Below are positions 408 to 26,317 of a stretch of DNA of 32,000 nt, in pieces. The translations under genes and the position numbers were made by a program. The DNA comes from Rhodococcus sp. WMMA185 (GTDB lineage: Bacteria; Actinomycetota; Actinomycetes; Mycobacteriales; Mycobacteriaceae): NCBI RefSeq assembly GCF_001767395.1, contig NZ_CP017014.1, forward strand, positions 3,581,012-3,613,011, read 5' to 3'. The notes below the pieces were generated by a model. That model had not been told where the DNA came from. It did no database searches and saw only the letters and a list, made by a program, of their open reading frames with translations. Numbering within the stretch: position 1 is the first letter of the stretch; every line of letters starts with the position of its first letter.

Positions 408-462
408 GCCGGTGAGCCTATCCCCCGCACGTCTCCGCTCCCAGACTTATAGGCTCGACCTC

Positions 463-1479: not shown

Positions 1480-2618
1480 CCCAGGTAGTTGAACACGAGC
1501 ATCGCCATGTTGCCCCGGCCCTCGATGTGGCGGGTCTGCTCGAAGACCGGGCGACCCGGATCATCGTGTGCTGCGGCGCCGGCGGCGTGGGAAAGACGAC
1601 TACGGCGGCATCACTGGCCCTGCGAGCAGCCGAACAGGGCCGCAAGGTGGTCGTGCTGACCATCGACCCAGCCCGCCGACTCGCGCAGGCTCTCGGCGTC
1701 GCGGAACTCGACAACACCCCTCAACCGGTGGAACTCGGGGCGAGCACCACCGGTGAACTTCACGCCATGATGCTCAACATGCGGCGCACATTCGACGAGA
1801 TGGTGATCGAGCACACCACACCGGAGAAGGCCGAGCAGATTATCGCGAACCCCTTCTATCAGACGGTCGCCACCTCGTTCTCCGGCACGCAGGAGTACAT
1901 GGCAATGGAGAAGCTGGGGCAACTCGCTTCCAACTCCGACTGGGACCTGGTTGTGGTCGACACACCGCCGTCACGCAACGCGCTGGACTTCCTCGACGCA
2001 CCTCAGCGCCTCGGCGCGTTTCTCGATGGTCGCATGATCCGATTGTTCACGGCGCCTGGTCGTGGCCTTACTCGGTTGGTGACTGGGGCAATGGGCCTCG
2101 CGCTGCGCGGGGTGTCGACCATCGTGGGCAGTCAGATGCTCTCGGACGCGTCCAGTTTCGTCCAATCACTGGATTCGATGTTCGGCGGATTTCGCGAACG
2201 AGCACGGGCCACCTATGAATTGCTTCGACAGCCCGGGACGAACTTCTTGGTGATCGCCGCCGCCGAGCCGGACGCACTGCGGGAAGCCGCGTTCTTCGTG
2301 GACCGACTGTTGGGCGACGACATGCCACTTGCTGGGCTCGTGCTGAATCGGACGCATCCCACCCTGGCCTCTCTGTCGGCCGATCACGCGGTTACCGCCG
2401 CTGACCAACTAGAAGACCAGGATCCCCTCACCGCGGCCGTGCTGCAGATTCACGCCCACCGGGCCATGACCGCGAAGCGTGAGGTCCAGCTGTTGAGCCG
2501 ATTCACAGCCGCGCACCCACACGTGCCGATCGTCGGCGTTCCCTCGCTGCCGTTCGAGGTGTCCGACCTCGAAGCATTGAGGGCCGTGGGTGACCAGCTC
2601 ACTCGCAAGACGTCCTGA
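1476..2618 (+). CDS. ArsA/Get3-like P-loop ATPase (Rv3680-like), second of the pair
   Basis: Walker [10 protein letters not shown] and an ArsA-like body ([32 protein letters not shown]). Its ATG 1476 overlaps the upstream TGA (ATGA, 4-nt overlap), indicating translational coupling. Confidence 0.9.
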
Positions 2619-2690
2619 GCTCGCCGGTCATCCGGTCCGCGCTATTCCCCCGGCGCTATATCCCCCGGTTGGAAGTCAGCCCCCCAGGAG

Positions 2691-3014
2691 TCAGACAGCG
2701 GACTGATGCTGCCGCTGCGCTTCGAAGAAGTCAGACCACGACTCGACCTCAGGGTGCTGCTTGAGTAGTGCTCGGCGCTGACGTTCCGTCATGCCGCCCC
2801 ATACGCCGAATTCGACACGATTGTCGAGAGCATCGGCCCCACACTGCATCAAAACCGGGCAATGCCGGCAGATCGTCGCAGCCTTCCGCTGCGCTGCGCC
2901 ACGGACGAAGAGCTGATCGGGATCGACTTCCCGACAACGAGCCTGCGTGACCCAGGCGATTCGAGCTTCTGCTTGCTCGACATCCAAACGGCTAGTTGGG
3001 GTGGTCATGTGCAT
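2691..3014 (-). CDS. whiB4: WhiB-family Fe-S redox transcription factor, WhiB4-like
   Basis: The C-terminal 107 aa of ORF 2691..3461 give MHMTTPTSRLDVEQAEARIAWVTQARCREVDPDQLFVRGAAQRKAATICRHCPVLMQCGADALDNRVEFGVWGGMTERQRRALLKQHPEV. This contains four Cys (C..CxxCxxxxxC) and the GVWGG turn. It is nearly collinear with Mtb WhiB4 and sits next to ponA2 as in Mtb. Start ATG 3014, or 3008. Confidence 0.9.
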   Translation of the reverse strand: MHMTTPTSRLDVEQAEARIAWVTQARCREVDPDQLFVRGAAQRKAATICRHCPVLMQCGADALDNRVEFGVWGGMTERQRRALLKQHPEVESWSDFFEAQRQHQSAV

Positions 3015-3255
3015 TCGGTTCCCCTCTTGTGTCTGCACAGCCCCCCCGCCTATCACGCTGAGACTGCACCAGATAAGTGATGGGCTGTTATCTCCATCAC
3101 ACCGTTCCCATAATTTAGGTAAAGAATCTGCAATGCGCAAGATGGAATCCACGACTTTTTGGTACGTACGTCCATCCCCACTGCTCAGGGCAGTTTCGTA
3201 GCCGACAATCTGCACCCGACCGGGGCACCCGAAGACCCCACGTACCCTGTAGGGC

Positions 3256-5631: not shown

Positions 5632-5635
5632 TCGA

Positions 5636-5675
5636 ATGTGGGTGGGACATGCGCCTGTGCAAGTCCCACCCACAT
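5636..5675. terminator. Perfect 13-bp hairpin between the convergent ponA2 and yqeY-like genes (bidirectional terminator candidate)
   Basis: atgtgggtgggac (5636-5648) pairs with gtcccacccacat (5663-5675) across a 14-nt loop. It sits exactly between the two stop codons (5631 and 5677). Confidence 0.7.
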
Positions 5676-5676
5676 G

Positions 5677-6144
5677 TCAGAGGCGGGACTTGACCGCCTC
5701 GGCAAGCCGCTTGCCGTCGGCCTTGTTACCGGCAATTGCCGAAGCAGCCTTCATGACCTGACCCATCTGACGCATACCGGGGCGCTCCCCGATGTCCTCT
5801 GCTACCTGAGCGAGTGCCGTGTCCACGACGTCCACGAGTTCGGCGTCGGTCAATGGCGTCGGTAGATACTCGTCGATGATCCGGGCTTCGGCGTGCTCCT
5901 TCGCCGCCAGTTCGCCTCTCCCGTTCTCGGTGTAGATCTCCGCAGCCTCTCCGCGCTTCTTCGACTCCTTCGCGAGGACCGCCAGAATCTCGTCGTCGGT
6001 GAGTTCGCGGGCTTGCTTGCCGGCGACCTCCTCGGTCTGAACTGAGGCCAGCAGCATGCGGATCGTGGAAGTACGCAACGAGTCCTTTGCCTTCATGGCG
6101 GCCGTCATGTCGGAGCGCAGTCGTGCTTTCAGTGAATCTGACAT
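5677..6144 (-). CDS. GatB/YqeY domain-containing protein (155 aa)
   Basis: C-terminal part of ORF 5677..6513: MSDSLKARLRSDMTAAMKAKDSLRTSTIRMLLASVQTEEVAGK...LTDDEILAVLAKESKKRGEAAEIY, a typical YqeY pattern. Start ATG 6144. The upstream 123 codons of the ORF are Arg/Ser-rich and overlap the neighbouring gene. Confidence 0.88.
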   Translation of the reverse strand: MSDSLKARLRSDMTAAMKAKDSLRTSTIRMLLASVQTEEVAGKQARELTDDEILAVLAKESKKRGEAAEIYTENGRGELAAKEHAEARIIDEYLPTPLTDAELVDVVDTALAQVAEDIGERPGMRQMGQVMKAASAIAGNKADGKRLAEAVKSRL

Positions 6145-6244
6145 GAGCAGAACGCTACGCGGTCGTAATCCGAATGAGCCACCGGAATTCTCCGCAGCCG
6201 ATCTGGCACTGCATCTCAATTGCACGGATCGGTATCCTGAGGGA

Positions 6245-7216
6245 GTGTCTGACGACTTCCGTACCAATCTGACTCGCGCCGCTCTTGGTACCGCAGGTGC
6301 CGCCGCCCTCGGGATCGGATATGCATCGCTCATCGAACGCAACGCTTTCGCACTGCGCGAGGTCACGATGCCGGTCCTCGAGCCGGAGTCGTCGACGCTG
6401 CGAGTCCTCCACATCAGCGACCTGCACATGATGCCCGGGCAACGGCTCAAGCAGAACTGGCTACGTGAACTCGACAGTCTCGACCCCGATCTCGTCGTCA
6501 ACACCGGCGACAACCTGTCGCATCCGCGGGCGGTTCCCGCGGTGGTTCAGGCGTTGGGCAATCTACTGGCCCGGCCCGGGCTGTTCGTCTTCGGCAGCAA
6601 CGACTACTTCGCGCCGAAGCCGAAGAACCCGCTCAAGTACTTCCGCAGGGACCACGGACGAGTGCTGGGTGAGCCGCTGCCATGGGGCGACTTGCGTGCA
6701 GCCTTCACCGAACGCGGCTGGTTCGACATCACCCACACGCGACGCGACTTCGAGGTGGCAGGAGTCAAGGTCGCGTCAGCAGGTATCGACGACCCACACC
6801 TCGGGCGCGACCGGTACGACACCATCGCCGGGCCTGGTAACCCGCATGCCGACCTCCGGCTCGGCCTCACCCACTCCCCCGAGCCCCGGGTGCTCGACCG
6901 TTTCGCCGACGACGGGTACGACCTGGTACTCGCCGGCCACACACACGGCGGTCAACTCTGCCTGCCGATCTACGGTGCGCTGGTCACCAACTGCGGCATC
7001 GACCGTTCGCGAGTCAAGGGCCCGTCCCAGTGGGGCTCCCACACCCAGGTACACGTGTCCGCCGGAATCGGGACATCACCCTGGGCACCTGTACGTTTCT
7101 GCTGCCGCCCCGAGGCGACACTCCTGACTTTGGTTCCCGCACAGCGAGGCGGCTCCGACGCAGGTGCCGGGCGGGGCCGCACCAGTCCGTCGCAGAGTGA
7201 AGTTTTGCGCAATTGA
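6245..7216 (+). CDS. Membrane-anchored calcineurin-like metallophosphoesterase (Rv3683-like)
   Basis: N-terminal TM helix ([22 protein letters not shown]). Metallophosphoesterase motifs are present: [35 protein letters not shown] 6245 is preferred because codons 6143-6244 have low third-position GC. ATG 6143 is the alternative. Confidence 0.85.
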
Positions 7217-10573: not shown

Positions 10574-13500
10574 TCACAGACCCCGATCGATCAGGTCGAG
10601 GATTTCCTCGCTGGTTGCCGAGTGAATCTTGTCTACCGCGTCGGCATGTGCATCGCCCGCGCCGACTTCCGCCAGCAAGAGTCTCAGCCGCTGCGCGATC
10701 GCCGACCGCGCCTCGCCGTCTTCGCCGAGTTGCGCGATGGCCGCGCGCAGCCGATCGAGGTCGGCAAGAGCCACCGAAGCCGGGTCCGGGGCGAGCTCCG
10801 CACGTAGGAACTCCGCGATGGCACGCGAATTCGGATGATCGAACACCACGGTCGGCGGCAACCGTAGCCCGGTAGCGGCACCGAGATAGTTGCGCAGAGC
10901 AACGGCGGCGAGCGAGTCGAAGCCGAGTTCCTTGAACGCCTGATCCGGGTCGACCTTGTCTGCGGCGGCATAACCGAGGACTTCGGCGGCGCCGGTCCGC
11001 ACCAGATCGAGCATCAGGTGCCGCTGCTCTGGAATCGACCGATTGGCAAGGCGCTGCTCCCAATCCGACGGTCCGGACCCCACCGATCCGGGTTCTGCTG
11101 CGCCCGATCCCGACGACCGCGGGCGCGATTCCCGGATCAGGCCACGCAGCGGAGCAGGGACGTAGGGTGCCGCCGTACCGGAGTGGTCGAACCGGGCGGC
11201 CGCCACGGCTGCGACACCTGCTGTCAACGCGGTATCGAGGAGTGTCAGACCGTCGACTGCTGACAGTGGGACCATTCCACTGCGGCGCGCGCGAGCGAGA
11301 TCGATCGCACCGAGGTTGTCGGTCATAGCGCTCGGCGGCGCCCACATCCCCCACGCAATCGAGAGCGCCGGCAGGCCAAGGGCGTGGCGGTGACGGGCGA
11401 GGGCGTCAAGGAACATGTTCGCGGCCGCGTAGTTCGCCTGGCCGGGCGCTCCGAGGACCCCAGCCAGCGACGAGAACATGACGAACGCCTGCAAGTCACA
11501 CTTCTCCGTCAACCGGTGCAGGTGCCAGGCGGCATCGACCTTCGGTCGGAGCACTGCGTCGAGACGGTCGGTGGTGAGCGAAGGCAGGGTGGCGTCATCT
11601 ATCACCCCTGCCGTGTGGATCACCGCCGTCAGTGGGTGCTCGGAAGGTATCTCGGCCAGCAATCCGGAAACTGCCGTCTCGTCGGACGTATCGCAGGCAA
11701 CGATGCTCACCTCGGCGCCCGTGGCGACCAGTTCGCGGCGCAACTCGTCGCAGCCCTCGGCATCGGGTCCGCGCCGGCTGGTCAGCAACAAATGCCGTGC
11801 CCCGTGCTCGGTGACCAAATGACGAGCCACCAACGAACCCAAAGCGCCGGTGCCACCGGTGACCAGAACGGTCCCGCGGGGATCGAATGGCGAAACGGCG
11901 GAATCGTGCACGGGACGCAATCGCCGCAACCGCGGCGCAAGCAAGGTGCCATTCCGCATTGCCGATTGCGGTTCCCCACTTGCCAGAGCCGACGTGATTG
12001 CGGCCGACGCGGTCGCAACTTCCGCGTCCGCCCCTTCGTCGAGGTCGATCAGCACGAATCGATCCGGGTTCTCGTTTTGCGCTGAGCCGACGAGACCCCA
12101 CACTGCAGCAGCGGCGAGGTCGGTTCGATCATCGCGCCGCGAATCGTCATCGGTGGCAATCGCATTCCGGGTCACGATCACCAGGGGGCTGTTTGCGACA
12201 TCGTCTTCCAGCCACTTCTGCAGCAGGTTCAGCACCCGGGCGCACAGTTGGTGGGTCGCCTCGGGACCTTGCTCGCCCTCGGTGCCGCACCCGACCAACA
12301 CAGCCCTAGGCCGCCGGTCATCCTCGTCCGCCATGGATTCCATCGCGGTTCGCAGAGCTTCCACGTCCGGATACCTCGGGAGGTCCGTACCAAATCCCTT
12401 GTCACCAAATCCCTTGTCACCAAATCCCTTGTCACCAAATACGTTGTCGGCGAACCCATCGGCACCGAGCACAACCATCGGACCGATGGTCTGCTCAGAT
12501 GAATCGACCTCGACGCGAACCCACGACAGCCGGTGCAATCGACGAGCGGCGGAACCGCCGGCGCCTTCCCCGTCAGTCACCCTCTGCACGACCCGCAGCG
12601 CGTCGACCGTCAGCACCGGCCTACCCTCCGGGTCGATGGCGGCCAGCCGATAGCGTCCGTCCTCGCCCGCTTCGAACTGCACCGATACCGCCTCTGCGCC
12701 AACGGTGTGCAGACGGACTCCCGCCCAGTCCATCGGCCAGCCATCCCAACCGAGGATCGGCTCGAGTACGTCCTGCAGTAGCGCCGGATGGATGCCGAAC
12801 CCGCTTGTGTCGATGCCTTCTTCGAGGCCCACCTCGATCTCGGTACCTTCTTCGAGGCCTACTTCGGCACCCTCATCAACTTTCGGTACCTCCTTGGCAA
12901 CGCTGACGACGTCGTCGATCGTCGCCGAAGCGTTTCGGACCCAAGCGTCCTCGCTGTCGTCCTCGCCCGGATTCGACGAAATCGTGACGGTGCGATCGCC
13001 GCTACCACCGTCCGGGGACACCAACACGCGAATCGATGCCGACCCCGACGACGACAGGGTCACTGGATGATGAAGAGTGAGTTCCCGGATATGGTCGAAA
13101 CCGACGTGGTGGGCCGCGTGCAATGTGAGTTCGACCAGTACGGACGGCGACACGATCTGCGGGCCATCGGCCGAGGACGAGTCGGCATCATCACGCGGCC
13201 CGGCCGCGGTGTCATCACGCGGCCCAGCCGCGGTGTCATCACGCGGCCCAGCCGCGGTGTCATCGACCGGCGCTGCCACGAGCCACGAATCTCGCCGAAG
13301 CGACAACTGACCGGTGAACAACGTCGAGTCGTCGTCGAGCGTCATGGTCGCCCCGAGCAGCGGATGATTCGCTGCGCTCAACCCCAGCTCCGTCGGATCA
13401 CCGGCATTTCGCATGGGCTCCGACGGCCAGAAGGAACGACGCTGGAATGCGTAGGTGGGCAAGTTCACCCGGCGGCGGCCAGGCAACACCCGATCCCAGT

Positions 13501-16500
13501 CGACCGCTACTCCGCGCACATAGGCGGCAGCAACCGCCTCCATGATCGCGTGTGCCTCGGTTCGACGTTTCGGCAGTGTCGCGATCGTATCCGGGACGAG
13601 TTCGGCAGCGTATGCGGCGAGGGTTGCGCCGGGACCGACTTCGATGAAGCGGGTGACGCCGAGCTCTTCGAGGGCGTGCACGCCGTCATGGAAGCGCACG
13701 GGCTGCCGGATGTGCCTCGTCCAGTATTCCGGAGACGTGAGTTCGTCGGCGGTGGCCAAACGTCCGGTCTCATTGGAAACGACAGGAATCTTCGGCTGCT
13801 GCGCCGACAACCCCGACACAACGGCGGTGAACTCGTCGAGGATGGGTTCCATCAGGGCGGAATGAAAGGCCCGCTCGACCCGCAGGGTCGTGTTCTTGAT
13901 GTCCGCTGCCTTCAACTCGGTTGCGACAGCTTGCACCTCGTCCTCTCCGCCGGAGAGGACCACCGATTCGGTGCCGTTGACCGCTGCCAGATCGACCCGG
14001 CCGTCGATCTGCGCCATGATGTCTTCTGCTCGCGCCCGTACGGCGATCATCAGGCCAGGTTCGGTCGATTGCATCAATCGTCCACGGTTGCCCACCAGCG
14101 CGGCGGCATCGGGCAGGCTGAACACCCCCGCGACATGTGCAGCGGTGATCTCCCCGATCGAATGACCGATCAGGTAGTCGGGGGTAATGCCCCAATCCCG
14201 CAGCAGCCGATAGAGCGCGACCTCGACGGCGAACAGTGCCGGTTGGGTGTAGTCGGTGCTGTCGAGCTTCGCGTCTCCGCCGTCAGCCTCGTCCCAGATC
14301 ACTTTTTGCACCGGGGTTTTCACATGTTCGTCGAGGGCAGCACACACGTCGTCCATCGCGTCGGCGAACACCGGGTAAGAATCGTAGAGGCCGCGGCCCA
14401 TCCCGACCCGCTGTGCTCCTTGGCCGGTGAACATGAATGCCGTCTTCCCACGGGCACTAGTCCCGGTGATGACGTTGCCACCCGGTCGGCCTTCCGCGAT
14501 ACGGGCCAAACCCTCACGGAGTTCGGCCAAGGTTTGTCCGATCACCGCCGCGCGATGCGGGAAGCTGGATCGGGTGGTGGCCAGTGAGTATGCGAGATCG
14601 GCCAGATCCGGTAGGTCTTCCTCATCCTTGTCGAGGAATTCCTCCAAACGAGAGGCTTGCGCACGCAGCGCATCAGCCGACTTCCCGGAGATCACCCAGA
14701 CCAGCGGCGACTCCGGTGGCTGCGGAGCTTGCGGTTCCGGCTCGGCGGGCGGCGCCTCGAGGATCATGTGTGCGTTGGTGCCGCTGATACCGAACGACGA
14801 CACCGCCGCTCGTCGAGGCCGTCCGGTCTCGGGCCACGCGATCGGTTCGGCAAGCAGAGAGACCTCGCCCGCTGTCCAATCAACGTGTCGTGTCGGAGCA
14901 TCGCCGTGCAGGCTCGGCGGCAGCACCCCGTGCCGCATCGCCATCACCATCTTGATCACGCCGGCCACTCCCGCCGCCGCCTGGGAATGCCCGATGTTCG
15001 ACTTGACCGAACCGAGCCATAGCGGCCGACCGGCCCGATCTTGTCCGTAGGTGGCCAATAGTGCCTGCGCCTCGATCGGATCCCCCAGTGTCGTGCCTGT
15101 GCCATGCGCTTCCACTGCGTCGATATCGGTTGGGCCGAGCGAGGCGTTGGCCAGCGCCTGGCGGATCACCCGTTCCTGGGACGGCCCGTTCGGGGCAGTC
15201 AATCCGTTGGAGGCCCCGTCCTGGTTGACCGCCGAACCGCGAATGGTCGCCAGCACCCGATGGCCGTTGCGTCGTGCGTCGCTGAGCCGTTCGAGCACCA
15301 CCATTCCGGAGCCTTCACTCAATCCGGTGCCGTCCGCCCGGTCGGAGAACGGCTTGCACCGTCCATCCGGGGCGAGCCCGCGCTGGCGGCTGAACTCGAC
15401 CAGCACACCGGGCGTGGACATCACCGTCGCTCCCCCGGCCAGCGCGAGGGGACATTCACCGTCGCGCAGGGCCTGTGCCGCAAGGTGCATAGCCACCAGT
15501 GACGACGAGCAGGCCGTGTCGACGGTAACTGCGGGGCCGGTGAAGCCGAGAGAGTAGGAGATCCGGCCGGATGCCACGCTGTCGCTGGTCCCGGTCATCA
15601 GATAGCCCTCGGCATCGACATTTCGCTGCGCCATCAAATGGAAGCCGTAGTCGCCACCCATCAGCCCGATGTACACCCCGGTGCCGGTCAGATCGGGCGA
15701 GTCGGGCTGGATACCCGCCTGCTCCAAGGCTTCCCAGGCACTCTCGAGAAGAAGTCGGTGCTGCGGGTCCATCGCGATCGCTTCACGAGGGCCGACCCCG
15801 AAGAACGCGGCATCGAATTCATCGGCGTCGTAGAGGAATCCCCCCTCTTTCATATACGTGGTGCCACTGCGGTCGGGGTCGGGGTCGTAGACCTCGTCGA
15901 GATCCCAGCCTCGGTTGTCGGGATACGCACCCGCGGCGTTGTGGCCATCGCGTACGAGTCGCCACAGGTCGTCTGCGGAGTACACCTTGCCCGGGTACCT
16001 GCAGGCCATGCCGACGATCACGATCGGGTCGTCGTCCTCGCTGGTACGTGCTGCGCGTGTCGGTTGCGCAGTTGAACTGCTGCCGAGTAGGCGGGCGAGG
16101 AGTTCGCGCGTGAGAGCGTCCGCGGTGGGATGGTCGAAGACCACCGTTGCCGCCAGGCTCACGCCGGTGGCGTTGGCGAGGTTGTTGCGCAGTTGAACGG
16201 CGGTCAGGGAGTCGAAGCCGAGTTGCTTGAAGGCGCGTTCCGGGTCGATCACCTCTTTGCCGTCGTAGCCGAGCACCGCGGCCACGTGCGTGGTGACGAT
16301 GTCGAGTACTCGGCTGTGGCGCTCCCCGGGATCGAGTGCACGCAACTCGTCGGCAAGACCGGTAGGCGACTCGGTGGCTGCGGCGCGCCGTCGACGGATA
16401 CCGAGAACCCGCCGCAGGATCGGCGGCACCGATTCACCCTCGGTTCTCGAGGCGCGCATCGACAGTCGTATCGGGACGACCAACGGTCGGTTCAAGACCA

Positions 16501-19500
16501 ACGCGGCATCGAACAGGTCGGGCCCCGACTCCGGGCTGATGGTATCGATACCGTTGCGCTGCAAGCGGTCGAGATCGGTCGCGCTCAGATGGGACGTCAT
16601 CCCACTCGGACGGTCCCACAAGCCCCACGCCATCGAGATCGCGGGCAATCCGCGGACGCGGCGGTGCTGAGCAAGTGCGTCGAGAAAGACATTCGCGGCG
16701 GCATAGTTTGCCTGACCGGCGCCGCCGAGCACACCAGCCGCAGAGGAGAACAGCACGAAGGCCGACAACTCGCGATCACGGGTTAGTTCGTGCAGATGCC
16801 AGGAGCCGTCCACCTTAGGGCGAAGAACCGCGTGCAACTGCTCCTCACTCAACGTGGCGGCAGTACCATCTTCGAGCACCCCGGCGGCATGGACCACTCC
16901 GGACAGGTCGGGAATGTCTGCAAGCAGGGCAGCGATCGCCGCGCGGTCGGCCACGTCGCAGGCGGCGGCGCTGACCTCCGCCCCAGTGCCGGCGAACTCG
17001 GCCTGAAGTTCGGCCACACTCTCGGCGTCGAGCGCCCGCCGGCCGGTCAACACCACTCGGCGCACCCCGTACCGGTCCACGAGGTGACGCGCGATCAGCC
17101 TCCCGATGGTTCCCGTACCTCCGGTGATCAAGATCGTTCCGGTCGGACCGAAGGGGGGCGGGCTTTCTTCGGATTCAGCCTTGAACGCAGCCGTAGCGAG
17201 TACGGGCGCAAGCAGCGAACCGTCCCGGATCGCCACCTGAGGTTCCTTGCAAGCCAATGCCATTGACAGCAACGCCGGATCTGGCGTTTCTCCGGCCGGC
17301 ACATCGAGGTCCACCAGCGTGATGCGATCAGGATTCTCGTTCTGCACCGCGCTGATCAGGCCCCACGCAGGTGCGGCGGCCACGTCGTCGATCGGTTCGT
17401 CGTCGCGGACCGGGACAGCGAGCCTGGTGGTGACCAACAGGTGGGTCTCGTCCAGGCCGTCTTCGCGGAGCCAGTACTGAATCGCGCGCAAAGCCTCCTG
17501 CGCGGCAGCGTGTGCTCGACTCGGCATGGGCGACTCGTCGCCTGGATGAAGATCCAACCACAGCACGCGATCGGTGTGATCGCCTCCGGCGAGTGCGTCC
17601 TGGAGTGGCATCAAGTCCGCAGCGGCAGTGGTGGCCGCTGTGGTGGGTATCCACTCCACACGGTAGAGGCTGCTGCCTACCCCAGCCGTGGAGACACTCG
17701 TATCCCCGAGAGGCCGCAGCGCCAGCGAGTCCGCTGTCAACACCCGTTTCCCGACCGCGTCGTATGCGGATACCCGGTATCGCTCCGCCCCGGTCATGGT
17801 GATGTGCACACGCAGCGATCTTGCACCCTCAGCGTGCAGTTGTACGTTGTCCCACACAAACGGCAGCCGAACGTCGCGTGCACCAGTTTCCGCGGCCCCG
17901 AACGCAATCACGTGCAACGCCGCGTCCAGCACTGCCGGATGGATCCCGTATCCCGCGACTTCGGGGTCGTCTCCGCCTAGCCGGACCTCGCCATACAGCT
18001 CGTCGCCGCGACGCCACGCTGCCCGCAGCCCTCGGAAGGTCGGGCCGTATCCGTAGCCGACCTCGTCGAGCAGCCCGTAGAGACCGCTGACGTCGATCGG
18101 AGTGGCATCGGCCGGCGGCCACTGCTGCTCGGTAGTGTCATCGACGTCCACCGACGCCGAAAGCGTGCCGCTGGCGTGCCGCGTCCACGGAGCTTCCGGC
18201 GGGGCATCTGCAGACCTCGAGTGCACCGCCACCGTGGCTCGGCCGGCTTCACCGTCGGCGAGCACGCTGACCTGTAGGGCAACTTCACCCTCGACCGGAA
18301 TCGTCAAGGGCACTTCGATGGCGAGTTCCTCGATCCGAGCGCACCCGATGCGGTTCCCCGCGTGCAAGGCGAGCTCGACGAAAGCGGTGCCGGGCAGTAT
18401 CACGGTTCCGTTCACGGCGTGATCGCTGAGCCACGGAAAACGTTCCGGTGAAAGCAGGCCCGTGAACACCGCACCACGGCCGTCACCGAGTTCTACGGAT
18501 GCGGCGAGCATCGGGTGTCCGCCCGCTTCCATGCCGGCCGACGCGAAATCACCCTGCGGCGCAGGACTGTCCAACCAGAAACGGCGGTGCGTGAAGCCGT
18601 ATGTAGGCAGTTCAACCCACGGGTGCCGACCGTCGCGCCGAGCCCAGCCCACGCGGTCCCACTCGATGTCCAATCCGTGTACCCACGCCTCGGCGAGTGC
18701 CGCGGTGAACTGACGCAGCCCTGCACGGTCGCGGCGGATAGTGCCGATTATTCGGCCGGCGACACCCGTAGCGTCAAGGGTTTCTTGCATCGGCACGGTC
18801 AGCACAGGGTGGCTGCACGATTCGATGAACAACCTATACCCGTCCGCGACAAGCGACCTCGTCGCTTCTTCGAACCGAACTGGGTGGCGCAGATTCCTGT
18901 ACCAGTAGCCCGCGTCCAGGGCGGTTCCCTCGAGCTCACCACCCGTGACAGCCGAGTAGAACGGAATCCGCGACCGGCTCGGGGTGATCGAGGCGAGAGC
19001 GTCGAGAATCGGTTGGCGCAGGACCGAGACATCCGCGCAGTGCGAGGCGTATTCCACAGCGATCCGCCTGGCCTGCACGCCCTCGGCCTCCAACTGCCCC
19101 ACCAAGGCATCGAGGGCATCGTCTGCACCGGACACCACCGTCGCGGACGGCCCGTTGATCGCCGCTACCTCGATGGCACCGGACCAGGGTTGAATCCTCT
19201 GCCGTACAGCGTCCGGGGGCAGCGGCACTGAGGCCATACCTCCGCCTCGCCGGGCCGACGTCACAATCACCCTGCTTCGTGCCGCGACGACAAGAGCTGC
19301 GTCGGAAAGGCTCAGAGCGCCGCTGATGTAGGCGGCGGCAATCTCGCCTTGCGAGTGCCCGACCACAGCAGCCGGTTCGACGCCGTGGGAGCGCCACAGC
19401 TCGGCGAGACCGACCATCACTGCGAACAGCGCGGGTTGCACCACATCGGCCCGGTCCAGCGCGGCCGGATCCGGATCACGCAGGACATCGAGTAATGAGA

Positions 19501-21334
19501 ACGACGTGTACGGTGCCAGCGCGTCGGCGCACTCCTGCACGGCATCGGCGAAAGCTGGCGACGAGTCCAGCAATTCCGTGGCCATACCTACCCACTGCGA
19601 ACCCTGACCCGGGAAAACGAAGACCGGCCTGTCCCCGGCCTCCAACGCCGCACCGGTGACCAAGTCGGCGCTGGGCGCACCTCGACTCAGGGCGTCGAGA
19701 CCGGCCAAGAGGCTCTGCGGCTCTGTGCCGATCACCGCCGCGCGATGGTCGAACCTGGTACGTGAGGTCAGCAATGCGCTCGCCACCGCGGCGGGCGGCA
19801 CCTCGGGGTGGTCGGCGGCATACTCACGTAGCCGCTGTGCCTGGGTGCGCAGAGCGTGTTCGGTCTGGCCCGAAACGCACCAGGCCAAGACTTCGGCCGC
19901 GTGGGGGCTCGCCTCCTGAGATGACGGATCATGCTCCTTCGGGGCCGGCAGGAACTGTTCCAGTACGACATGGGCGTTGGTGCCGCTGATGCCGAACGAC
20001 GAGACTGCCGCCCGGCGGGGTCGATCGACCTCCGGCCAATCCCGGTTCTCGGTGAGGAGAGACACCGATCCAGCAGACCAGTCGACGTGCGGGGTCGGCT
20101 GGTCGACGTGCAGCGTCTTCGGTAGGACGCCACGGCGCATCGCCATGATCATTTTGATCACCCCGGCAACACCGGCGGCCGCCTGGGTATGCCCGAGGTT
20201 CGACTTCACCGAGCCCAGCCACAGCGGCCGGTCCGTGGGGCGGTCGCGGCCGTATCCGGCCAACAACGCGGTCGCCTCGATCGGATCGCCCAGCTTGGTC
20301 CCTGTACCGTGCGCCTCGACGGCATCGACGTCGGCCGGATCCAGCCCGGCATTGGCCAGCGCCTGCCGTATCACACGCTCCTGTGCCTGCCTGTTCGGAG
20401 CGGTCAGGCCGTTGCTTGCACCATCCTGGTTCACCGCACTGCCGCGGATTACGGCCAGTACCCGGTGCCCCTTTCGCTCTGCGTCAGAGAGTCGCTCCAA
20501 CGCGATCATCCCAGCACCTTCACCCCAAGCGGTGCCGTCGGCAGACGCGGCGAATGCCTTGCACCTCCCGTCTGGGGCAAGTCCGCGCTGGCGACTGAAC
20601 TCCACGAACACCGCGGGGGTCGCCATAACGGTCGCCCCACCGGCCAGCGCTAGTTCGCACTCACCGGCGCGCAGCGCTTGCATGGCGAGATGGATGGAGA
20701 CCAACGACGACGAGCACGCGGTGTCCACGGTGATCGCCGGACCGGACAGGCCGAAGCTATAGGCCACTCGCCCGGAGGCGACACTCATCGCGTTGCCGGT
20801 GATGAAGTAACCCTCTAGGTCTTCCGGCGGGCGTCCGCCGACACGCGCCGCGTAGTCGATACCGGACAGCCCGGTGAAGACCCCGACCTGGTGGCCGTGC
20901 AACGACCGCGGATCTATCCCGGCATGCTCGAAGGTCTCCCAGCTCGTTTCGAGAAGAAGGCGCTGTTGGGGGTCCATGGCCAGCGCCTCACGCGGGGAGA
21001 TCCCGAAGACCTCGGGATCGAACGCCGCCGGTTCGTCGAGAAAGCTGCCCTGCACCGTGTAGGTTTTGCCCGACTGCTCTGCCTTCGGGTCGTAAAGTTC
21101 GGCCAGACCCCAGCCGCGGTCCTCGGGGAACTTCGTTACGGTTTCCGAACCCGATTCCACCAGACTCCACAGTTCCTGCGGTGATCGCACCCCACCTGGG
21201 AATCTGCAGCCCATCCCGATCACGGCGATCGGTTCGCGGCTCACCCCCTCGGCCTCGCGGAGCTTCTCCCGAGCTTGGTAGAGGTCCGCTGTCACCCGTT
21301 TCAGGTAGTCGAGGAGCTTCGCCTGATCGGCCAT
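10574..21334 (-). CDS. Bimodular type I polyketide synthase: Ndock-KS-AT(mmal)-DH-KR-ACP-KS-AT(mal-like)-DH(degenerate)-KR-ACP-Cdock; no ER, TE or loading module
   Basis: Residue numbers follow the 3627-aa ORF-track translation; nt ranges are approximate. N-dock aa 42-72 ([29 protein letters not shown]). KS1 19958-21235 (DTACSSS C248, [13 protein letters not shown]). AT1 18743-19630 (GHSQGE, YASH 803-806). DH1 17708-18625 (HPML, H1013[18 protein letters not shown]1178AALH). KR1 16598-17146 (GGTGTIG, LED, SSAAG...Y1585AAAN). ACP1 16088-16345 (GFDS1750L). KS2 14756-16033 (C1983). AT2 13583-14449 (GHSIGE, RAFH 2529-2532). DH2* 12578-13474. KR2 11333-11878 (GGTGALG, IDD, Y3343). ACP2 10802-11050 (GFDS3515L). 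C-terminal ~70 aa end in [15 protein letters not shown] 21334 is preferred over 21457, where the 41 upstream codons have lower GC3. Confidence 0.95.
12391..12450 (-). repeat. In-frame 15-nt tandem repeat (3 perfect copies plus 1 degenerate) encoding (GDKGF)3 inside the PKS
   Basis: caaatcccttgtcac occurs at 12391, 12406 and 12421, followed by the degenerate caaatacgttgtcgg. The protein reads [23 protein letters not shown] (aa 3003-3025). It lies in the linker before the structural KR2 subdomain. Confidence 0.95.
12816..12875 (-). repeat. Imperfect 30-nt tandem duplication inside the degenerate DH2 region (encodes EVGLEEG twice)
   Basis: ccttcttcgaggcccacctcg at 12816 and ccttcttcgaggcctacttcg at 12846. 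The protein reads [21 protein letters not shown] (aa 2863-2883). Confidence 0.8.
13187..13261 (-). repeat. In-frame 24-nt tandem repeat (3 copies) encoding (DTAAGPRD)3, inserted at the DH2 active-site motif position
   Basis: Three units of (a/g)tcatcacgcggccc(g/a)gccgcggt start at 13187, 13211 and 13235. The protein reads [32 protein letters not shown] (aa 2731-2760). Confidence 0.95.
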
Positions 21335-21692
21335 TCGAGACCAGCTCCCATCCAAGATCCGCCTTGCCAGCGTAGAAACTTCGATTGTATCCGTGACCAC
21401 GGCCCGGACGCATTGATCCGCAGCGGTGACGGGGGCGCCTAGATCACGATTGGCCACAGTTTCGTGCCCGATTCAGGGCCCGTCGAGAAGCTCGCCACAA
21501 CGCCGTGAAAGCAGGTCAGAACACTTTCCGCCGTTTGCCTCCTCGGAACGAAAGGTGCGGCATACGAAGGTAGTTCGCAATTCGAGCGCGGCACTACCGG
21601 ATACCACGCCGTAGAATTTCGGTGAGGAGGCTATCGCCCTCCCCGGTGCACAATCCCGCAGGCGCGCCCATATCAAGCGGCGGAGAACGACG

Positions 21693-23042
21693 ATGCAATT
21701 TGGAGCCCGATTCGGCAGGTACCGCCTCGACCTTCCAATGTCAGCGGATGCGAACGGCGAGGTCTGGGCAGCATTCGACACGGTCACGAATCAACACGTG
21801 ACCGTGCGCGCGCTACCAGCGGAAACTACCGAGAACGACGAGTACCGCGATCGGTTCGAACGAGTTGCCGGCATTGCGGCGAACATCCACCACCCCTATG
21901 TGCTTCCGGTCCACGACTTCGGGCAGATCGGCGACCGCCTCTTCCTCGCAACCCCGCACATCCAGGGCACCAGCCTGCACACGATGCTCCAGTCCACCGG
22001 CGCGATGGAGGTACCACGCGCGGTCGACATCATCGAACAACTGGCGTCGGCCCTCGAAGCTGTACACGCGGCGGGACTCGCAGAGCAGGTGGTCACGTCG
22101 TCGAACGTTCACATGCAGGAAAACGGGCTGATCTGCCTCACCGACGTCGGGCTCCCCGCTAGTCCGGGCAGGCCGTCGGGGGTCTACGGTCTCGCCTCGG
22201 TGCTGTACGAATGCCTCACCGGCATGCCGTTTCAGCCCTCGGGCGGAAACGAGTTGCCTACACATCCATCGTCGGTCATGCCTACGGTGCCCGCCGGCAT
22301 GGACGCCGTGATCGCGCGGGGCACCGCGGTCGACCCCGCACGACGATACCCGTCCGAAAGCGAATTGGCCGCCGCCGCTCGCGGGGTGGTGGCACCCGCA
22401 CCATCCGTCCCCGAGCCCAGTCCCTCAATCCCTCCGGTCAACTGGAGGCGGCGTGCCATGGTCGCCGGCCTTTCGGTCGTAGCAATCATTGCTGTCGCGA
22501 TCGTCGGCGGCATCGCTATAGGGTCGAGGCCGTCGCCCGACGCGACCGTCCCCGCAGCATCGCCAACGTCTGAACAGGCATCCTCGCCGACCGTGACCAC
22601 TCCGCCGCCTGCCACGACCCATCCGACCCAGGCTGAGCAGGCAGCACCGGAACAGGCACCACAGCAGGCGCAGACCCAGATTGCGGAAACAGCTCCACCT
22701 CAGCAAGCGCCCCAACCCGCACCAGCACCAGCACCAGCACCTGCGCCCCAGGTACTGCCGTGCTACGACGGCTACCAGCACACCCCACCACCGGACGGGC
22801 CGTGCCTCTCGATCGGCTCATCCCCCGAACCGGCACAGGTACCGGCCGCACCCGCGCCACAGGTGCTGCCCTGCTACGACGGCTACCAGCACACCCCACC
22901 ACCGGACGGGCCGTGCCTCCCGATCGGCTCATCCCCCGAACCGGCACAGGTACCGGCCGCACCCGCACCACAGGTGCTGCCCTGCTACGACGGCTACCAG
23001 CACACCCCACCACCGGACGGGCCGTGCCGCAGAATCCCCTGA
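21693..23042 (+). CDS. Single-pass membrane protein: cytoplasmic Ser/Thr-kinase-like pseudokinase domain, TM helix, Pro/Ala/Gln-rich stalk and a tandem Cys-loop repeat ectodomain
   Basis: A Hanks-kinase fold can be aligned by eye to PknB, but key residues are replaced. The G-loop reads SADANG instead of GxGxxG. VAxK becomes VTVR (R39). HRDxKxxN becomes AEQVVTSSN (aa 130-138). DFG becomes DVG (151-153). The activation segment/APE is cut to about 9 aa. TM helix AMVAGLSVVAIIAVAIVGGIAIG (aa 255-277). An (AP)n microsatellite lies at 22719-22742. It is followed by 37-aa repeats QVLPCYDGYQHTPPPDGPC.... Confidence 0.8.
   Translation: MQFGARFGRYRLDLPMSADANGEVWAAFDTVTNQHVTVRALPAETTENDEYRDRFERVAGIAANIHHPYVLPVHDFGQIGDRLFLATPHIQGTSLHTMLQSTGAMEVPRAVDIIEQLASALEAVHAAGLAEQVVTSSNVHMQENGLICLTDVGLPASPGRPSGVYGLASVLYECLTGMPFQPSGGNELPTHPSSVMPTVPAGMDAVIARGTAVDPARRYPSESELAAAARGVVAPAPSVPEPSPSIPPVNWRRRAMVAGLSVVAIIAVAIVGGIAIGSRPSPDATVPAASPTSEQASSPTVTTPPPATTHPTQAEQAAPEQAPQQAQTQIAETAPPQQAPQPAPAPAPAPAPQVLPCYDGYQHTPPPDGPCLSIGSSPEPAQVPAAPAPQVLPCYDGYQHTPPPDGPCLPIGSSPEPAQVPAAPAPQVLPCYDGYQHTPPPDGPCRRIP
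22749..23036 (+). repeat. 111-nt (37-codon) tandem repeat, 2.6 copies, near identical at the DNA level
   Basis: Units start at 22749, 22860 and 22971. Copies 1 and 2 differ at 4 of 111 nt. Copy 3 is identical to copy 2 for 57 nt and then diverges into the stop codon. Confidence 0.95.
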
Positions 23043-23060
23043 GCCGATTAGGATCGGCCC

Positions 23061-23435
23061 GTGATCGACTTCGAAAATGCGTCATTCATCAAACTCACCC
23101 AGTCGGATCCGAATGCCGCCTGGGACGCCCTTCAAGGACTCCTCATCCCTGGCGAGGAGATTCTCATGGCATTCAAAGGCGTGCGAGACTCGGTGACCTT
23201 CACCAACAAGCGCATCGTCGTGCTCAATGCGCAAGGCATCACCGGGAAGAAGAAGGACTACACCTCACTGCCCTACAACCGCATCCAAGCGTTCTCCGTC
23301 GAGACGTCCGGGACCTTCGATTCCGACACCGAACTCCAACTGTGGTTCAGCAGCTTGGGATTGGTGCGCTTCGAATTCGGCCGCGGCACCGACATCCGAT
23401 CCGTGAACTACCTCATCGCGAATCACGTGCTCTGA
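23061..23435 (+). CDS. Bacterial pleckstrin-homology domain protein (bPH_1 / YokE-like)
   Basis: MIDFENASFIKL...GEEILMAFKGVRDSVTFTNKRIVVLNAQGITGKKKDYTSLPYNRIQAFSVETSGTFDSDTELQLWF matches the bPH_1 pattern (RD...FT.KR....D.QG.TGKK....IPY..I..F..ET.G..D.D.EL). GTG start. Confidence 0.75.
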   Translation: MIDFENASFIKLTQSDPNAAWDALQGLLIPGEEILMAFKGVRDSVTFTNKRIVVLNAQGITGKKKDYTSLPYNRIQAFSVETSGTFDSDTELQLWFSSLGLVRFEFGRGTDIRSVNYLIANHVL

Positions 23436-23463
23436 CGGCACGGCCCTACGTCGGATCAGGTGC

Positions 23464-23946
23464 TCAGAGCTTGTAGCCGATCGTGCGGAGCAGGGCCTTG
23501 CGGTCGGCTACATCGGCGCTCGTCTCCACGCCGGCTGGTGGGCCCCCGTCGATCACGCCGACGATGCCCCGGCCGAGCTCGGTCTCCGCGACGATGATCT
23601 CGACGGGGTTGGCCGTCGCACAGAAGATGCCGCACACCTCTGGTACTCGTTTCAACGAGTTCAGGAAGTTCACCGGGTAGCCGTCCTCGACGAACACGAA
23701 GAACGAGTGTCCCGCTCCGACGGCAAGCGCGTTGCGCTTGGCCAACTCGACGAGAAGATCGTCGTTGCCCGAGCAGCGCACCAGACGAGGCCCGGAGGCT
23801 TCGCAGAATGCCACACCGAACCGGAGGTGAGGACTCACCCCGGCCAGTGCTTCGTGCAGGTCCTCGACGGTCTTGATGAAGTGGGACTGCCCGACGACCA
23901 CGTTCATGTCGTCAGGCTTGTCGACCGCTACGCTGTGCAGTTCCAC
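23464..23946 (-). CDS. Adenosine-specific kinase family (PF04008-like) protein
   Basis: VELHSVAVDKPDDMNVVVGQSHFIKTVEDLHEAL...FGVAFCEASGPRLVR..GND...GAGHSFFVFVEDGYPVNFLNSLKRVPEV..IFCATANP...GRGIVGVIDG is the conserved pattern of this family. GTG 23946 lies 5 nt after a GGAGGAGG SD. Confidence 0.75.
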   Translation of the reverse strand: MELHSVAVDKPDDMNVVVGQSHFIKTVEDLHEALAGVSPHLRFGVAFCEASGPRLVRCSGNDDLLVELAKRNALAVGAGHSFFVFVEDGYPVNFLNSLKRVPEVCGIFCATANPVEIIVAETELGRGIVGVIDGGPPAGVETSADVADRKALLRTIGYKL

Positions 23947-24959: not shown

Positions 24960-25433
24960 TCAGGCGACCTGCGCCTGCCACATCCAGTGCAACTGCTCGA
25001 GTCGCGCGGTGATCGAAATCAACAGGTCCTGGGTGACGGGGTCGGCCTTCTCCGTGGCCGTGATGCGATCGCGGAGGCGATCGATGACGGCCGCGAGGTT
25101 TCCGACGATCGACGCAACGATCTCGGAATCCTGGGTCCAGCCTTCCCCGATGCCCTTGCTGCCCGTATCTCTTGCGACAGTGGCCGCTCGACCGTCGGGG
25201 CTGACACCGATAGCCGTGGCCCGTTCGGCCGCCTCGTCGGTGAAATCGCGGGCCGCGGTCACCAGTTCGTCGAGGGCCAGGTGCACTGACCGGAAATTCT
25301 GTCCGATCACGTTCCAGTGGGCTTGCTTCGCGATCAGACTCAGGTCGATGAGGTCGACGACCGTCGCTTGCAGCGCGGCGCCCACGATCTTCTGCTGGTT
25401 GCTGTCGAGTGTGCTCGTGATGGGGTAGCTCAT
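24960..25433 (-). CDS. dps: Dps (DNA protection during starvation, ferritin-like) protein, 157 aa
   Basis: MSYPITSTLDSNQQKIVGAALQATVVDLIDLSLIAKQAHWNVIGQNFRSVHLALDELV... contains the Dps ferroxidase-site pattern (K.AHWNV.G..F...H..LDE). ATG 25433 follows a GGGAGGGA SD. The N-terminal 60 codons of the track ORF are rejected. Confidence 0.92.
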   Translation of the reverse strand: MSYPITSTLDSNQQKIVGAALQATVVDLIDLSLIAKQAHWNVIGQNFRSVHLALDELVTAARDFTDEAAERATAIGVSPDGRAATVARDTGSKGIGEGWTQDSEIVASIVGNLAAVIDRLRDRITATEKADPVTQDLLISITARLEQLHWMWQAQVA

Positions 25434-25715
25434 TGCGAGCTCCCTCCCTTCGGTTCGGCTTTGCGGCGCCGCACATATGACGCGCGACGAGGGTTCATAT
25501 TCACCAACGCCCTTACCAACACCACCCTTCCCGTCGTGACCGTACAGACACTTGAAGAGGACTCTTCTGGATACAACAACTTGGCAAATACGGCAGACCA
25601 GCCGGGCGTTCACCCTGCCCTGAGGAGGATGATGGAGTTGACACCATGACCACGAGTAGTCGTGAAGTGCGCAGTGCGAAAGTGCGCAGTGTGGAGTCGG
25701 GCGAAGGAGGGTGTC

Positions 25716-25775
25716 ATGGAAACCGCGATCGTGTTCGTTCTCGCCTTGCTGTTCTACTGGTGGGGTCTGCTCTGA
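25716..25775 (+). CDS. Candidate 19-aa hydrophobic micro-protein METAIVFVLALLFYWWGLL
   Basis: GAAGGAGG ends 5 nt before ATG 25716. GC3 is 16/19, matching the coding bias of the window. The peptide is a single predicted TM-length hydrophobic stretch. It is on the opposite strand to both flanking genes. No homology could be checked. Confidence 0.4.
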   Translation: METAIVFVLALLFYWWGLL

Positions 25776-25861
25776 TCCTTGTCTGAGTCATCGTCTGAGT
25801 CATCCCAGGGACCTCCCTCGGTCTTGCCTCGAGTGCAGCAGATGAGGTGGGGCGGGACTGG

Positions 25862-26317
25862 TCAGGACCGAGCCCTCGCCTCTGTTCCGTTCCGAGTAGC
25901 GGCCTGGCACTGCAAGCAGAATCCCCAGAAGACGACCTCGGCCTCGTCGATTTCGAATCCGTGTGACTCCGACGGGTCGAGACAAGGGGCCTCTCCAACG
26001 GCGCAGTCAACATCTACGACAGTCCCGCAACCGCGACAGACGAGGTGATGATGGTTGTCTCCGGTACGGGTCTCGAAGCGAGCGGGCGAACCTGCGGGCT
26101 CGATTCGCCGCAGCAATCCAGCGGTGGTGCACGCTCTCAGAACGTCATACACCGCCTGGGTGGAGACCGAACCCAACTCGCTACGTACCGCAGCCGCGAT
26201 TTCGTCGACATCGGAATGTGGCCGTGCGGCAACCGCATTCAACACCGCAACTCGTGGCGCAGTGACACGTAAGCCGACTCCTCGCAACTGCTCTCGGGGA
26301 TCGATGTCGTGCCGCAT
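25862..26317 (-). CDS. furA: Fur-family transcriptional regulator, FurA/PerR-like
   Basis: LRVTAPRVAVLNAV...HSDVDEI...STQAVYDVL...GDNHHHLVCRGCGTVVDVDCAVGEAPCL...GFEIDEAEVVFWGFCLQC has the HHH and CxxC...CxxC metal sites. It is collinear with Mtb FurA as recalled. Confidence 0.88.
   Translation of the reverse strand: MRHDIDPREQLRGVGLRVTAPRVAVLNAVAARPHSDVDEIAAAVRSELGSVSTQAVYDVLRACTTAGLLRRIEPAGSPARFETRTGDNHHHLVCRGCGTVVDVDCAVGEAPCLDPSESHGFEIDEAEVVFWGFCLQCQAATRNGTEARARS

Follow-up and report, generated by a model that had tools for sequence, protein, structure and literature searches.

Seven pseudokinase families are described in the atlas and review of bacterial serine/threonine kinases (bioRxiv 10.1101/2025.01.12.632604; PMC12599244). 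Two of the pseudokinases covered, MviN and EssB/YukC, sit in the membrane, have a shortened activation loop and act as scaffolds: ActPs3/MviN (Rv3910; PDB 3OTV and 3UQC) combines an activation-loop deletion with a C-terminal transmembrane (TM) helix, and EssB/YukC is a bitopic membrane pseudokinase and dimeric scaffold in which the G-loop and three catalytic motifs are degraded and the activation loop is attenuated (PMC12599244). A Nocardia “Act1” pseudokinase (VVVR / HQRLRADS / EIG) is also listed, so pseudokinases scattered within canonical actinobacterial families are already recognized (PMC12599244). Here we describe a gene in a 32,000-nucleotide stretch of the Rhodococcus sp. WMMA185 genome (contig NZ_CP017014.1, positions 3,581,012 to 3,613,011 of the forward strand; this whole stretch is called “the window” and all coordinates are counted from its first letter). 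The closest relatives of its product are Mycobacterium tuberculosis PknE (Rv1743; 2H34) and the PknE/PknD-like kinases of Nocardia and Mycobacterium (∼35-38% identity), and it belongs to an uncharacterized clade of PknE-derived pseudokinases that is confined to one lineage and carries a Cys-loop ectodomain not described before. From sequence comparison and modeling, we consider it probable (roughly 0.6) that the gene product is a bitopic, receptor-like, non-catalytic pseudokinase scaffold. Literature searches found no publication on this pseudokinase family.

The kinase homology of the window protein is unambiguous and far beyond chance. The Pfam Pkinase profile (PF00069) matched at 39.6 bits (gathering cutoff 31.7), over profile positions 12-144 of 263 only. 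A phmmer search of PDB sequences gave PknE, PknA and PknB as best matches; the alignment to PknE (2H34; E = 6.8e-37) consists of two blocks, with the activation segment left out between them. An AlphaFold2 (AF2) model built from 45 homologues (mean predicted local distance difference test [pLDDT] of 89.2; predicted template modeling score [pTM] of 0.79) has a kinase fold, for which Foldseek ranked 2H34 first (template modeling scores of 0.70/0.79), with PknE, PknI, PknA and PknB as leading matches (0.70-0.85). In its cytoplasmic domain the protein retains a Hanks-kinase fold of the PknE/PknD lineage. It also shares with PknE-like kinases the succession of kinase domain, juxtamembrane linker, single TM helix and ectodomain, together with the signatures HDFG(E/Q), LYECLTG and DAVIARG. 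An earlier reading of this DNA, made by eye from the letters (the sequence-only reading), had taken the protein for a membrane-anchored pseudokinase with a retained fold signature; the elements it named (HPYVLPVHDFG, LYECLTG, DPARRY) are present, the AF2 model gives the expected fold, and the alignments to PknE and PknB do not restore the catalytic Lys or the HRD Asp in register. Scores fell short of the NCBIfam equivalog cutoffs (StpK7/MSMEG_1200: 154 versus 900; PknB_PASTA: 101 versus 450; PknD: 53 versus 839).

Active PknE-like relatives keep GxGxxG, VAxK, HRDVKPxN, DFG and a full activation loop with APE, whereas the family keeps only the DFG Asp and the catalytic-loop Asn. Motif registers were set by phmmer alignment to PknE and BLASTP alignment to PknB (a sequence 100% identical to 1MRU), and residues were counted in a census of 22 distinct family genes taken from genome loci, the window gene among them. 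In the G-loop the second Gly is replaced by Asp in 21 of the 22 genes and the first by Ser or Thr, and the beta3 Lys is Arg in every gene. The position of the alpha-C Glu is Glu or Asp in 19 genes and Val in the window protein alone. PknB H136-R137-D138 aligns to E131-Q132-V133 of the window protein, which puts Val133 at the catalytic-Asp position; this position is Glu in 15 genes, Gly in 3, Tyr in 2, Ala in 1 and Val in 1 (the window gene), and Asp in none. The sequence-only reading had rightly reported the loss of HRD, with a register (AEQ) that was one residue off. The catalytic-loop Lys (PknB K140), which is T135 in the window protein, is found in 0/22 genes, and the catalytic-loop Asn (PknB N143, here N138) is retained in 20/22. 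The Asp of DFG is retained in 18/22 and the Phe is replaced by Val in 21/22. Between this motif and alpha-F, the linker is exactly nine residues long in all 22 genes; in the window protein, LPASPGRPS replaces ∼34-37 residues (∼34 in PknE) of activation loop, P+1 loop and APE, leaving ∼28 missing. Alignment thus agrees with what had been read by eye of the G-loop (SADANG), of the beta3 strand (VTVR, with R39 opposite PknB K40), of the exchange of the catalytic-loop Lys for Thr with the Asn kept, of DVG for DFG, and of the nine-residue spacing that leaves no activation loop or APE. Three further lesions came to light: Val58 at the alpha-C Glu position, Gly163 in place of the conserved alpha-F Asp (Gly in 21/22), and a deletion in the alpha-G region, where the alpha-F to alpha-H connection is ∼9 residues shorter than in active relatives, varies in length among family members, and has a four-residue helix where alpha-G normally sits. 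As the sole member with Val at both the alpha-C Glu and the catalytic-Asp positions, the window copy is somewhat more degraded than the family consensus. It has the metal ligands N138 and D151, and lacks the beta3 Lys, HRD Asp, catalytic-loop Lys, GxGxxG and activation segment.

To establish the distribution of the family, 5.8 billion proteins were searched, which returned ∼20 full-length orthologues (42-71% identity) from Rhodococcus (marinonascens, aetherivorans, jostii, koreensis, opacus and others), Aldersonia and Skermania, all annotated as serine/threonine kinases in public databases. Intact orthologues (∼25) in these three genera have open reading frames (ORFs) of similar length with the same fixed indels. 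Among 1.84 billion 50%-identity representatives, a profile search gave end-to-end matches only for P0002 and P0019, plus one frameshifted copy. The family is small and lineage-restricted. Pairwise Nei-Gojobori ratios of nonsynonymous to synonymous substitution rates (dN/dS) for the kinase-like domain were 0.25-0.39, well below 1 in every pair, with medians of 0.29 in the N-lobe, 0.38 in the C-lobe, 0.62 in the juxtamembrane and TM region and 0.45 in the stalk. Of the first 90 positions, 25 never vary, and 8 of these lie among the first 12. Purifying selection, most marked in the N-lobe, has conserved the family within one Nocardiaceae group. The description “phosphotransfer-dead” given by the sequence-only reading is well supported at the level of sequence and fold: five catalytic elements are lost, and the losses are fixed across this conserved family. 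The domain would not be expected to bind peptide substrates or transfer phosphate in the canonical manner, or to be switched by phosphorylation of an activation loop. In a neighbor-joining tree of the domain, the family formed a single clade in 99/100 bootstraps, with active Nocardia kinases (intact K, HRD, DFG and APE) as its sister group, all inside the PknE-like group. The profile search also brought up two other loop-less PknD/E-like domains with independent deletions, one in P0115 (Lys kept, HGD, DFG), where it lies upstream of an active kinase, a TM helix and apparent NHL-type repeats (judged by eye), and one in P0193 (HRA and DFA); loss of the activation segment thus appears recurrent in the PknD/E-like lineage. 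Several gene copies or fragments in R. opacus DSM 44188 (VSSE01; L018, L022 and L035; P0017 and P0022) seem to carry frameshifts, among them a 647-aa product whose C-terminus is out of frame and short ORFs with one repeat; they could reflect errors of long-read assembly or be true additional copies in decay.

The start codon of the 449-aa ORF is sound, because in the alignment every orthologue begins with the same MQxGxxFGRYRL. Its predicted topology is N-in, C-out: the TM segment AGLSVVAIIAVAIVGGIAI (mean Kyte-Doolittle value of 2.6) directly follows RRR, and both hydropathy and the AF2 helix at residues 254-276 bear out the membrane anchor proposed earlier. The end coordinate given earlier, 22523, is only the end of this helix; the ORF extends 519 nt further, to 23042, and codes there for a stalk rich in Pro and for three repeats of 37 aa, each of which has a C-x13-C loop (CYDGYQHTPPPDGPC). 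Across the family the repeat motif C-x2-G-[YF]-x-H-x-P-x-P-D-G-P-C does not vary, while synonymous sites differ between genera. Species have one to three repeats; two is the number in most genomes, and the window has three. In the AF2 model the repeat units are small beta-hairpins (pLDDT ∼81-87 in the best blocks, ∼60-70 in the linkers), and a disulfide probably closes each loop. Repeat copies from one genome resemble each other more (DNA identity 0.94-1.00) than copies from different genomes (0.71-0.92; window and loci L001-L005), and two window-specific changes, CYPGY to CYDGY (P to D) and YEH to YQH (E to Q), occur in all three copies, so the repeats have been homogenized within the genome. 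This pattern fits concerted evolution or recent re-duplication. No Pfam family reached its threshold for the repeat in the window protein or in P0023, a metagenomic protein discussed below; PF23678 (YqhI-like) was rejected at 18.2 bits (window) and 25.5 bits (P0023) against a cutoff of 27, with 12 residues matched. YqhI itself is just a small E. coli protein, named in work on small proteins that Mg starvation induces. The ectodomain also sets the family apart from its active relatives. M. tuberculosis PknE carries a thioredoxin-like domain; such a domain (PF13462) is present in the active relative P0039 and absent from the family, which has the Pro-rich stalk and Cys loops instead.

To establish where else the repeat occurs, one genome for each of 185,579 species was scanned with a degenerate DNA motif for the Cys-loop repeat (VLPCYPGYxHTPPPDGPC). 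This identified 32 loci, of which 30 were in Nocardiaceae (Rhodococcus, Aldersonia, Skermania and Antrihabitans); the other two (Salinicola and an Acidimicrobiia metagenome-assembled genome) were single matches in 32- and 66-aa frames and are probably chance matches. In four Antrihabitans genomes and one Rhodococcus genome, the repeat is carried by a stand-alone MviN-type pseudokinase (ActPs3-like, SIDHPDR; loci L019, L021, L027, L028 and L034; proteins P0045, P0050, P0066 and P0093). One of these, P0045, matched 3OTV at E = 3e-63 and has 24% identity to the window domain. The C, G, H, P, D, G, P and C of the Cys loop are invariant in the family and in the MviN-type carriers. None of the scan matches was on an ORF containing HRDxKP, and no genome in the scan held both PknE-derived and MviN-type repeat carriers. 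P0023 (419 aa) consists of a short N-terminal tail, a TM helix and seven repeats and has no kinase-like domain, showing that the repeat can be an independent surface module.

Among described pseudokinases, ActPs3/MviN is similar in architecture, with a short activation-loop remnant and a TM helix C-terminal to the domain; in the MviN-type protein the spacing from DFG to alpha-F aligns without gaps to the window domain. However, the 24% identity of P0045 to the window domain corresponds to 42.7 bits, compared with ∼130 bits between window and PknE; a joint clade with MviN appeared in 2/100 bootstraps, and MviN was ranked 41 by Foldseek and lay outside the top 60 phmmer PDB matches. The ActPs3 motifs VALT and LSIDHPxR and the MurJ fusion are absent from the family, and the DFG Asp, lost in 98% of ActPs3, is kept in most of its members. 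Because the lineages differ, the likeness to MviN in architecture reflects convergence or domain swapping. The family was compared with the published descriptions of ActPs1, ActPs2 and DYD pseudokinases; all three share with it an actinobacterial origin and, often, a C-terminal TM helix. ActPs2 has a beta3 Arg, Asn for the HRD Asp, a deletion in the DFG motif, and insertions of 32 aa (beta3-alphaC) and ∼250 aa (activation loop) (PMC12599244). Only the beta3 Arg is shared, as the family has D-V-G, no insertions and a deleted loop, with Val at the catalytic position in the window protein and Glu or Gly in relatives. ActPs1 has three catalytic residues substituted, a G-helix deletion in ∼60% and often a C-terminal PQQ domain (PMC12599244). 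Here the features point both ways: the reduced alpha-G region is common to both, and Pfam found no PQQ domain in the window protein. The DFG Asp is missing from 100% of ActPs1 and ActPs2 and retained in 18/22 family genes. DYD pseudokinases share the beta3 Lys-to-Arg exchange, yet the DYD motif lies in the loop that the family has deleted, and the family combines a retained acidic residue at alpha-C (19/22) with the loss of HRD. EssB/YukC is likewise a bitopic membrane pseudokinase with degraded motifs and a reduced activation loop, but it belongs to Firmicutes and type VIIb secretion (T7SSb) clusters and has no detectable close sequence relationship; no secretion genes flank the family.

A receptor-like scaffold is our preferred explanation for this combination of features. 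The “scaffold or sensor domain” of the sequence-only reading fits the protein best; the part most likely to sense is the ectodomain, beyond the coordinates given in that reading. The most retained and constrained parts of the cytoplasmic domain are the N-lobe and alpha-C, including the FGRYRL segment and Asp75, and this constraint, which takes in residues of the back-to-back kinase interface, suggests that the domain probably acts via protein-protein contacts. R9, opposite PknB R10 in the alignment, is Arg or Lys in 22/22 genes, and D75, opposite PknB D76, is Asp in 22/22. In PknB, D76A and L33D disrupt the back-to-back dimer interface (PMC13434768; PDB titles 3ORM and 3ORO), and PknE forms the same N-lobe dimer (PMC3601408). 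The front-to-front contact used in trans-phosphorylation has lost its activation loop and has a reduced alpha-G region. Candidate contacts would be a homodimer, N-lobe pairing with an active PknE-like kinase, or a cytoplasmic partner such as an FHA protein, which might be recruited by analogy with MviN-FhaA or EssB/YukC. On the outer face, the loops on their Pro-rich stalk probably bind a cell-envelope ligand or partner and set clustering or localization. A juxtamembrane phospho-Thr like MviN T947 was considered and rejected; orthologues often have “TP” there, the window protein has Ser, and the position is not conserved.

Several observations weigh against this explanation. PknB L33 aligns to Thr32 (Thr in 19/22), so the back-to-back interface is only partly retained (2/3 residues) and a dimer is hypothetical; Leu41, tried as an alternative counterpart of L33, was ruled out by the same alignment. 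Residues of the active site are conserved (N138 in 20/22, the DFG Asp in 18/22, the alpha-C acidic residue in 19/22 and Glu at the catalytic-Asp position in 15/22). In addition, the ectodomain model is of moderate confidence (pLDDT of 75), its disulfides are an assumption, the dN/dS of ∼0.3 is relaxed compared with typical core genes, and the comparison of flanking ORFs described below found no family-wide neighbor.

Conservation of N138, D151, Arg39 and the acidic residues means that a ligand- or metal-binding pocket is possible, and the product might instead be a switch that binds a nucleotide and/or a divalent cation without phosphotransfer, with occupancy steering its conformation and partners. 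We regard this as unlikely, if still worth weighing, and it overlaps with the scaffold model. Arg39 is invariant (22/22, never Lys), and ATP binding can survive a K-to-R exchange in pseudokinases, as it does in KSR1 and EphB6 (PMC12599244); a switch of this type has also been proposed for ActPs2 and DYD pseudokinases. The canonical Mg ligands (Asn138 and the DFG Asp) and the alpha-C acidic residue are kept, and Glu sits at the catalytic-Asp position, at the frequencies given above. However, Asp19 of the G-loop (Asp in 21/22) and the Ser/Thr at the first Gly should clash with or repel phosphates, and with Val at both the alpha-C Glu and the catalytic Asp, the site in the window protein is further degraded.

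A broader proposal links the receptor-like scaffold to the distribution of its ectodomain. The Cys-loop ectodomain, as a Nocardiaceae-specific module, may have been coupled at least twice to independently derived dead, loop-less kinase domains (so far, the PknE-derived domain in Rhodococcus, Aldersonia and Skermania, and the MviN-type domain in Antrihabitans), as a phosphorylation-independent device for transmembrane signaling or scaffolding. This is a tentative suggestion, to which we give clearly less weight than to the scaffold itself. If it were correct, the kinase fold would be a dimerizing or ligand-gated module, and the Arg39/Asn138/Asp151 pocket a possible nucleotide or metal switch.

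Table 1. Features of the pseudokinase gene and its product (positions within the window; residue numbers refer to the 449-aa product).
Feature	Position	Strand	Basis or remark
Complete pseudokinase ORF	21693..23042	+	449 aa: pseudokinase domain, TM helix, Pro-rich stalk, three Cys-loop repeats
Shine-Dalgarno-like GGAG	21682..21685	+	8-11 nt before ATG; consensus match only
Cytoplasmic kinase-fold (pseudokinase) domain, residues 1 to ∼235	21693..22397	+	Pfam PF00069, PknE 2H34 match, AF2, Foldseek
Degenerate G-loop S17-A-D-A-N-G22 (versus GxGxxG; PknB/PknE GRGGMG)	21741..21758	+	Alignment
Beta3 strand V36-T-V-R39; PknB K40 (ATP-anchoring Lys) replaced by Arg	21798..21809	+	Alignment
Val58 at alpha-C Glu position (PknB E59)	21864..21866	+	BLASTP to PknB
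Catalytic loop E131-Q-V-V-T-S-S-N138 (versus HRDVKPxN)	22083..22106	+	Alignment to PknE, PknB
D151-V-G153 replacing DFG; metal-binding Asp retained	22143..22151	+	Alignment
Nine-residue remnant LPASPGRPS, DVG to alpha-F	22152..22178	+	Alignments
Alpha-F helix GVYGLASVLYECLT; conserved alpha-F Asp replaced by Gly163	22179..22220	+	AF2 helix residues 163-176
Shortened alpha-F to alpha-H connection	22224..22289	+	Alignment gap; AF2 helix 192-195 only
Single TM helix, residues ∼254-276, RRR before it	22452..22520	+	Hydropathy maximum 2.64; AF2 helix 254-276
Extracytoplasmic Pro/Ala/Gln/Thr-rich stalk	22521..22742	+	Ectodomain 27% Pro; dN/dS median 0.45
Tandem array, 2.6 × 111 bp, 96% matches	22737..23028	+	Tandem Repeats Finder; three copies of APQVLPCYDGYQHTPPPDGPC plus linker
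Cys loop 1, C357-C371, CYDGYQHTPPPDGPC	22761..22805	+	AF2 small beta-hairpin, pLDDT ∼80
Cys loop 2, C394-C408	22872..22916	+	Sequence; AF2
Cys loop 3, C431-C445	22983..23027	+	Sequence; AF2

The genomic neighborhood bears on a third explanation, in which the protein is a dedicated regulator or sensor of the divergent neighboring gene. This gene encodes a two-module type I polyketide synthase (PKS; 3627 aa, 10574..21457, minus strand), which starts 236 bp upstream of the pseudokinase, and the same arrangement is found in R. marinonascens. The sequence-only reading had called the two genes divergently paired, with the PKS as a possible partner. However, adjacency of pseudokinase and PKS was found only in the window and R. 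marinonascens; orthologues in R. aetherivorans, R. jostii, Aldersonia and Skermania have no PKS beside them and their neighbors are unrelated. An all-against-all comparison of flanking ORFs, covering the family-bearing loci and the window (pseudokinase cluster in 26), found no neighbor conserved across the family, and the genomic context therefore hints at no partner. Flanking genes were conserved within sub-clades only, such as the gamma-polyglutamate (gamma-PGA) hydrolase and nucleoside hydrolase genes of the R. opacus/jostii clade. The pairing is positional and finds no support as a functional link, and the PKS is no conserved partner; a role as its regulator is largely refuted by synteny and we consider it highly improbable.

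An atypical active kinase with relocated catalytic residues (Glu for Asp, Arg for Lys) and possibly a non-protein substrate seems just as improbable. Glu occupies the catalytic-Asp position in most of the family, the Asn and the DFG Asp are mostly kept, and WNK and POMK are precedents for relocated residues (PMC12599244). Yet at that position the window protein itself has Val rather than Glu. Losses also extend to the G-loop glycines, the catalytic-loop Lys and the alpha-F Asp, no member has an activation segment, P+1 loop or APE, and the Pfam match is limited to profile positions 12-144. Least probable of all is a decaying kinase remnant, a pseudogene in progress, for which many catalytic motifs lost, a dN/dS of ∼0.3 above that of typical housekeeping genes and the two extra degenerative changes of the window copy (E58V and V133) could be cited, but which is refuted by the conservation of the family: intact ORFs of similar length in ∼25 genomes of three genera with the same indels fixed, pairwise dN/dS ratios that all lie well below 1, 25 invariant residues among the first 90, and an ectodomain motif that is invariant while synonymous sites vary.

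Immediately downstream, a gene for a bacterial PH domain protein (bPH_1, 128 bits; 23061-23435, plus strand) starts 19 nt after the pseudokinase stop codon and may be co-transcribed with it in the window; this adjacency is shared with R. marinonascens only, where the gap is 275 nt. Between the two genes, a scan of 21300..23600 detected neither a sigma-70-like promoter nor a terminator, a result that is uninformative for a high-GC actinobacterium. The PKS (10574-21457, minus strand) consists of an N-terminal docking domain and two modules of ketosynthase (KS), acyltransferase (AT), dehydratase (DH), ketoreductase (KR) and acyl carrier protein (ACP) domains in the order KS-AT-(DH)-KR-ACP. Pfam dehydratase domains were found in module 1 only; module 2 has tandem peptide repeats, with DDTAAGPR three times at the place expected for the DH active-site His motif and GFGDK three times further on, and its DH may be degenerate. 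Further downstream (24960-26317), Dps/ferritin-like and Fur-family genes lie ∼250 bp apart without a catalase gene; in R. marinonascens (locus L001, 13627-16486) a catalase gene (PF00199) lies between them. At 286-7216, the window encodes two ArsA-like ATPases, a WhiB-family protein, a class A penicillin-binding protein with a PASTA domain, YqeY and a metallophosphoesterase, a set of genes that we take to resemble the Rv3679-Rv3683 (whiB4-ponA2) neighborhood of M. tuberculosis.

Bacterial pseudokinases have been catalogued only recently, and to our knowledge functions have been established experimentally essentially for MviN, EssB/YukC and a few secreted effectors only. Rhodococcus is important in biodegradation and lipid biotechnology, and the label “serine/threonine-protein kinase” that databases attach to this family is almost certainly wrong and would mislead counts of Rhodococcus signaling kinases. 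The family offers a natural experiment: a young pseudokinase clade whose active sister is still recognizable, with a loop deletion parallel to that of MviN. The most notable point is that one ectodomain motif is carried by two independently derived, loop-less pseudokinase lineages and, in the scan, by no active kinase. The practical gain is modest, namely better annotation and a tractable target in the genetically accessible R. jostii and R. opacus. If the fold is truly a phosphorylation-independent dimerization module, the family could reveal what non-catalytic signaling requires of the Hanks fold, part by part.

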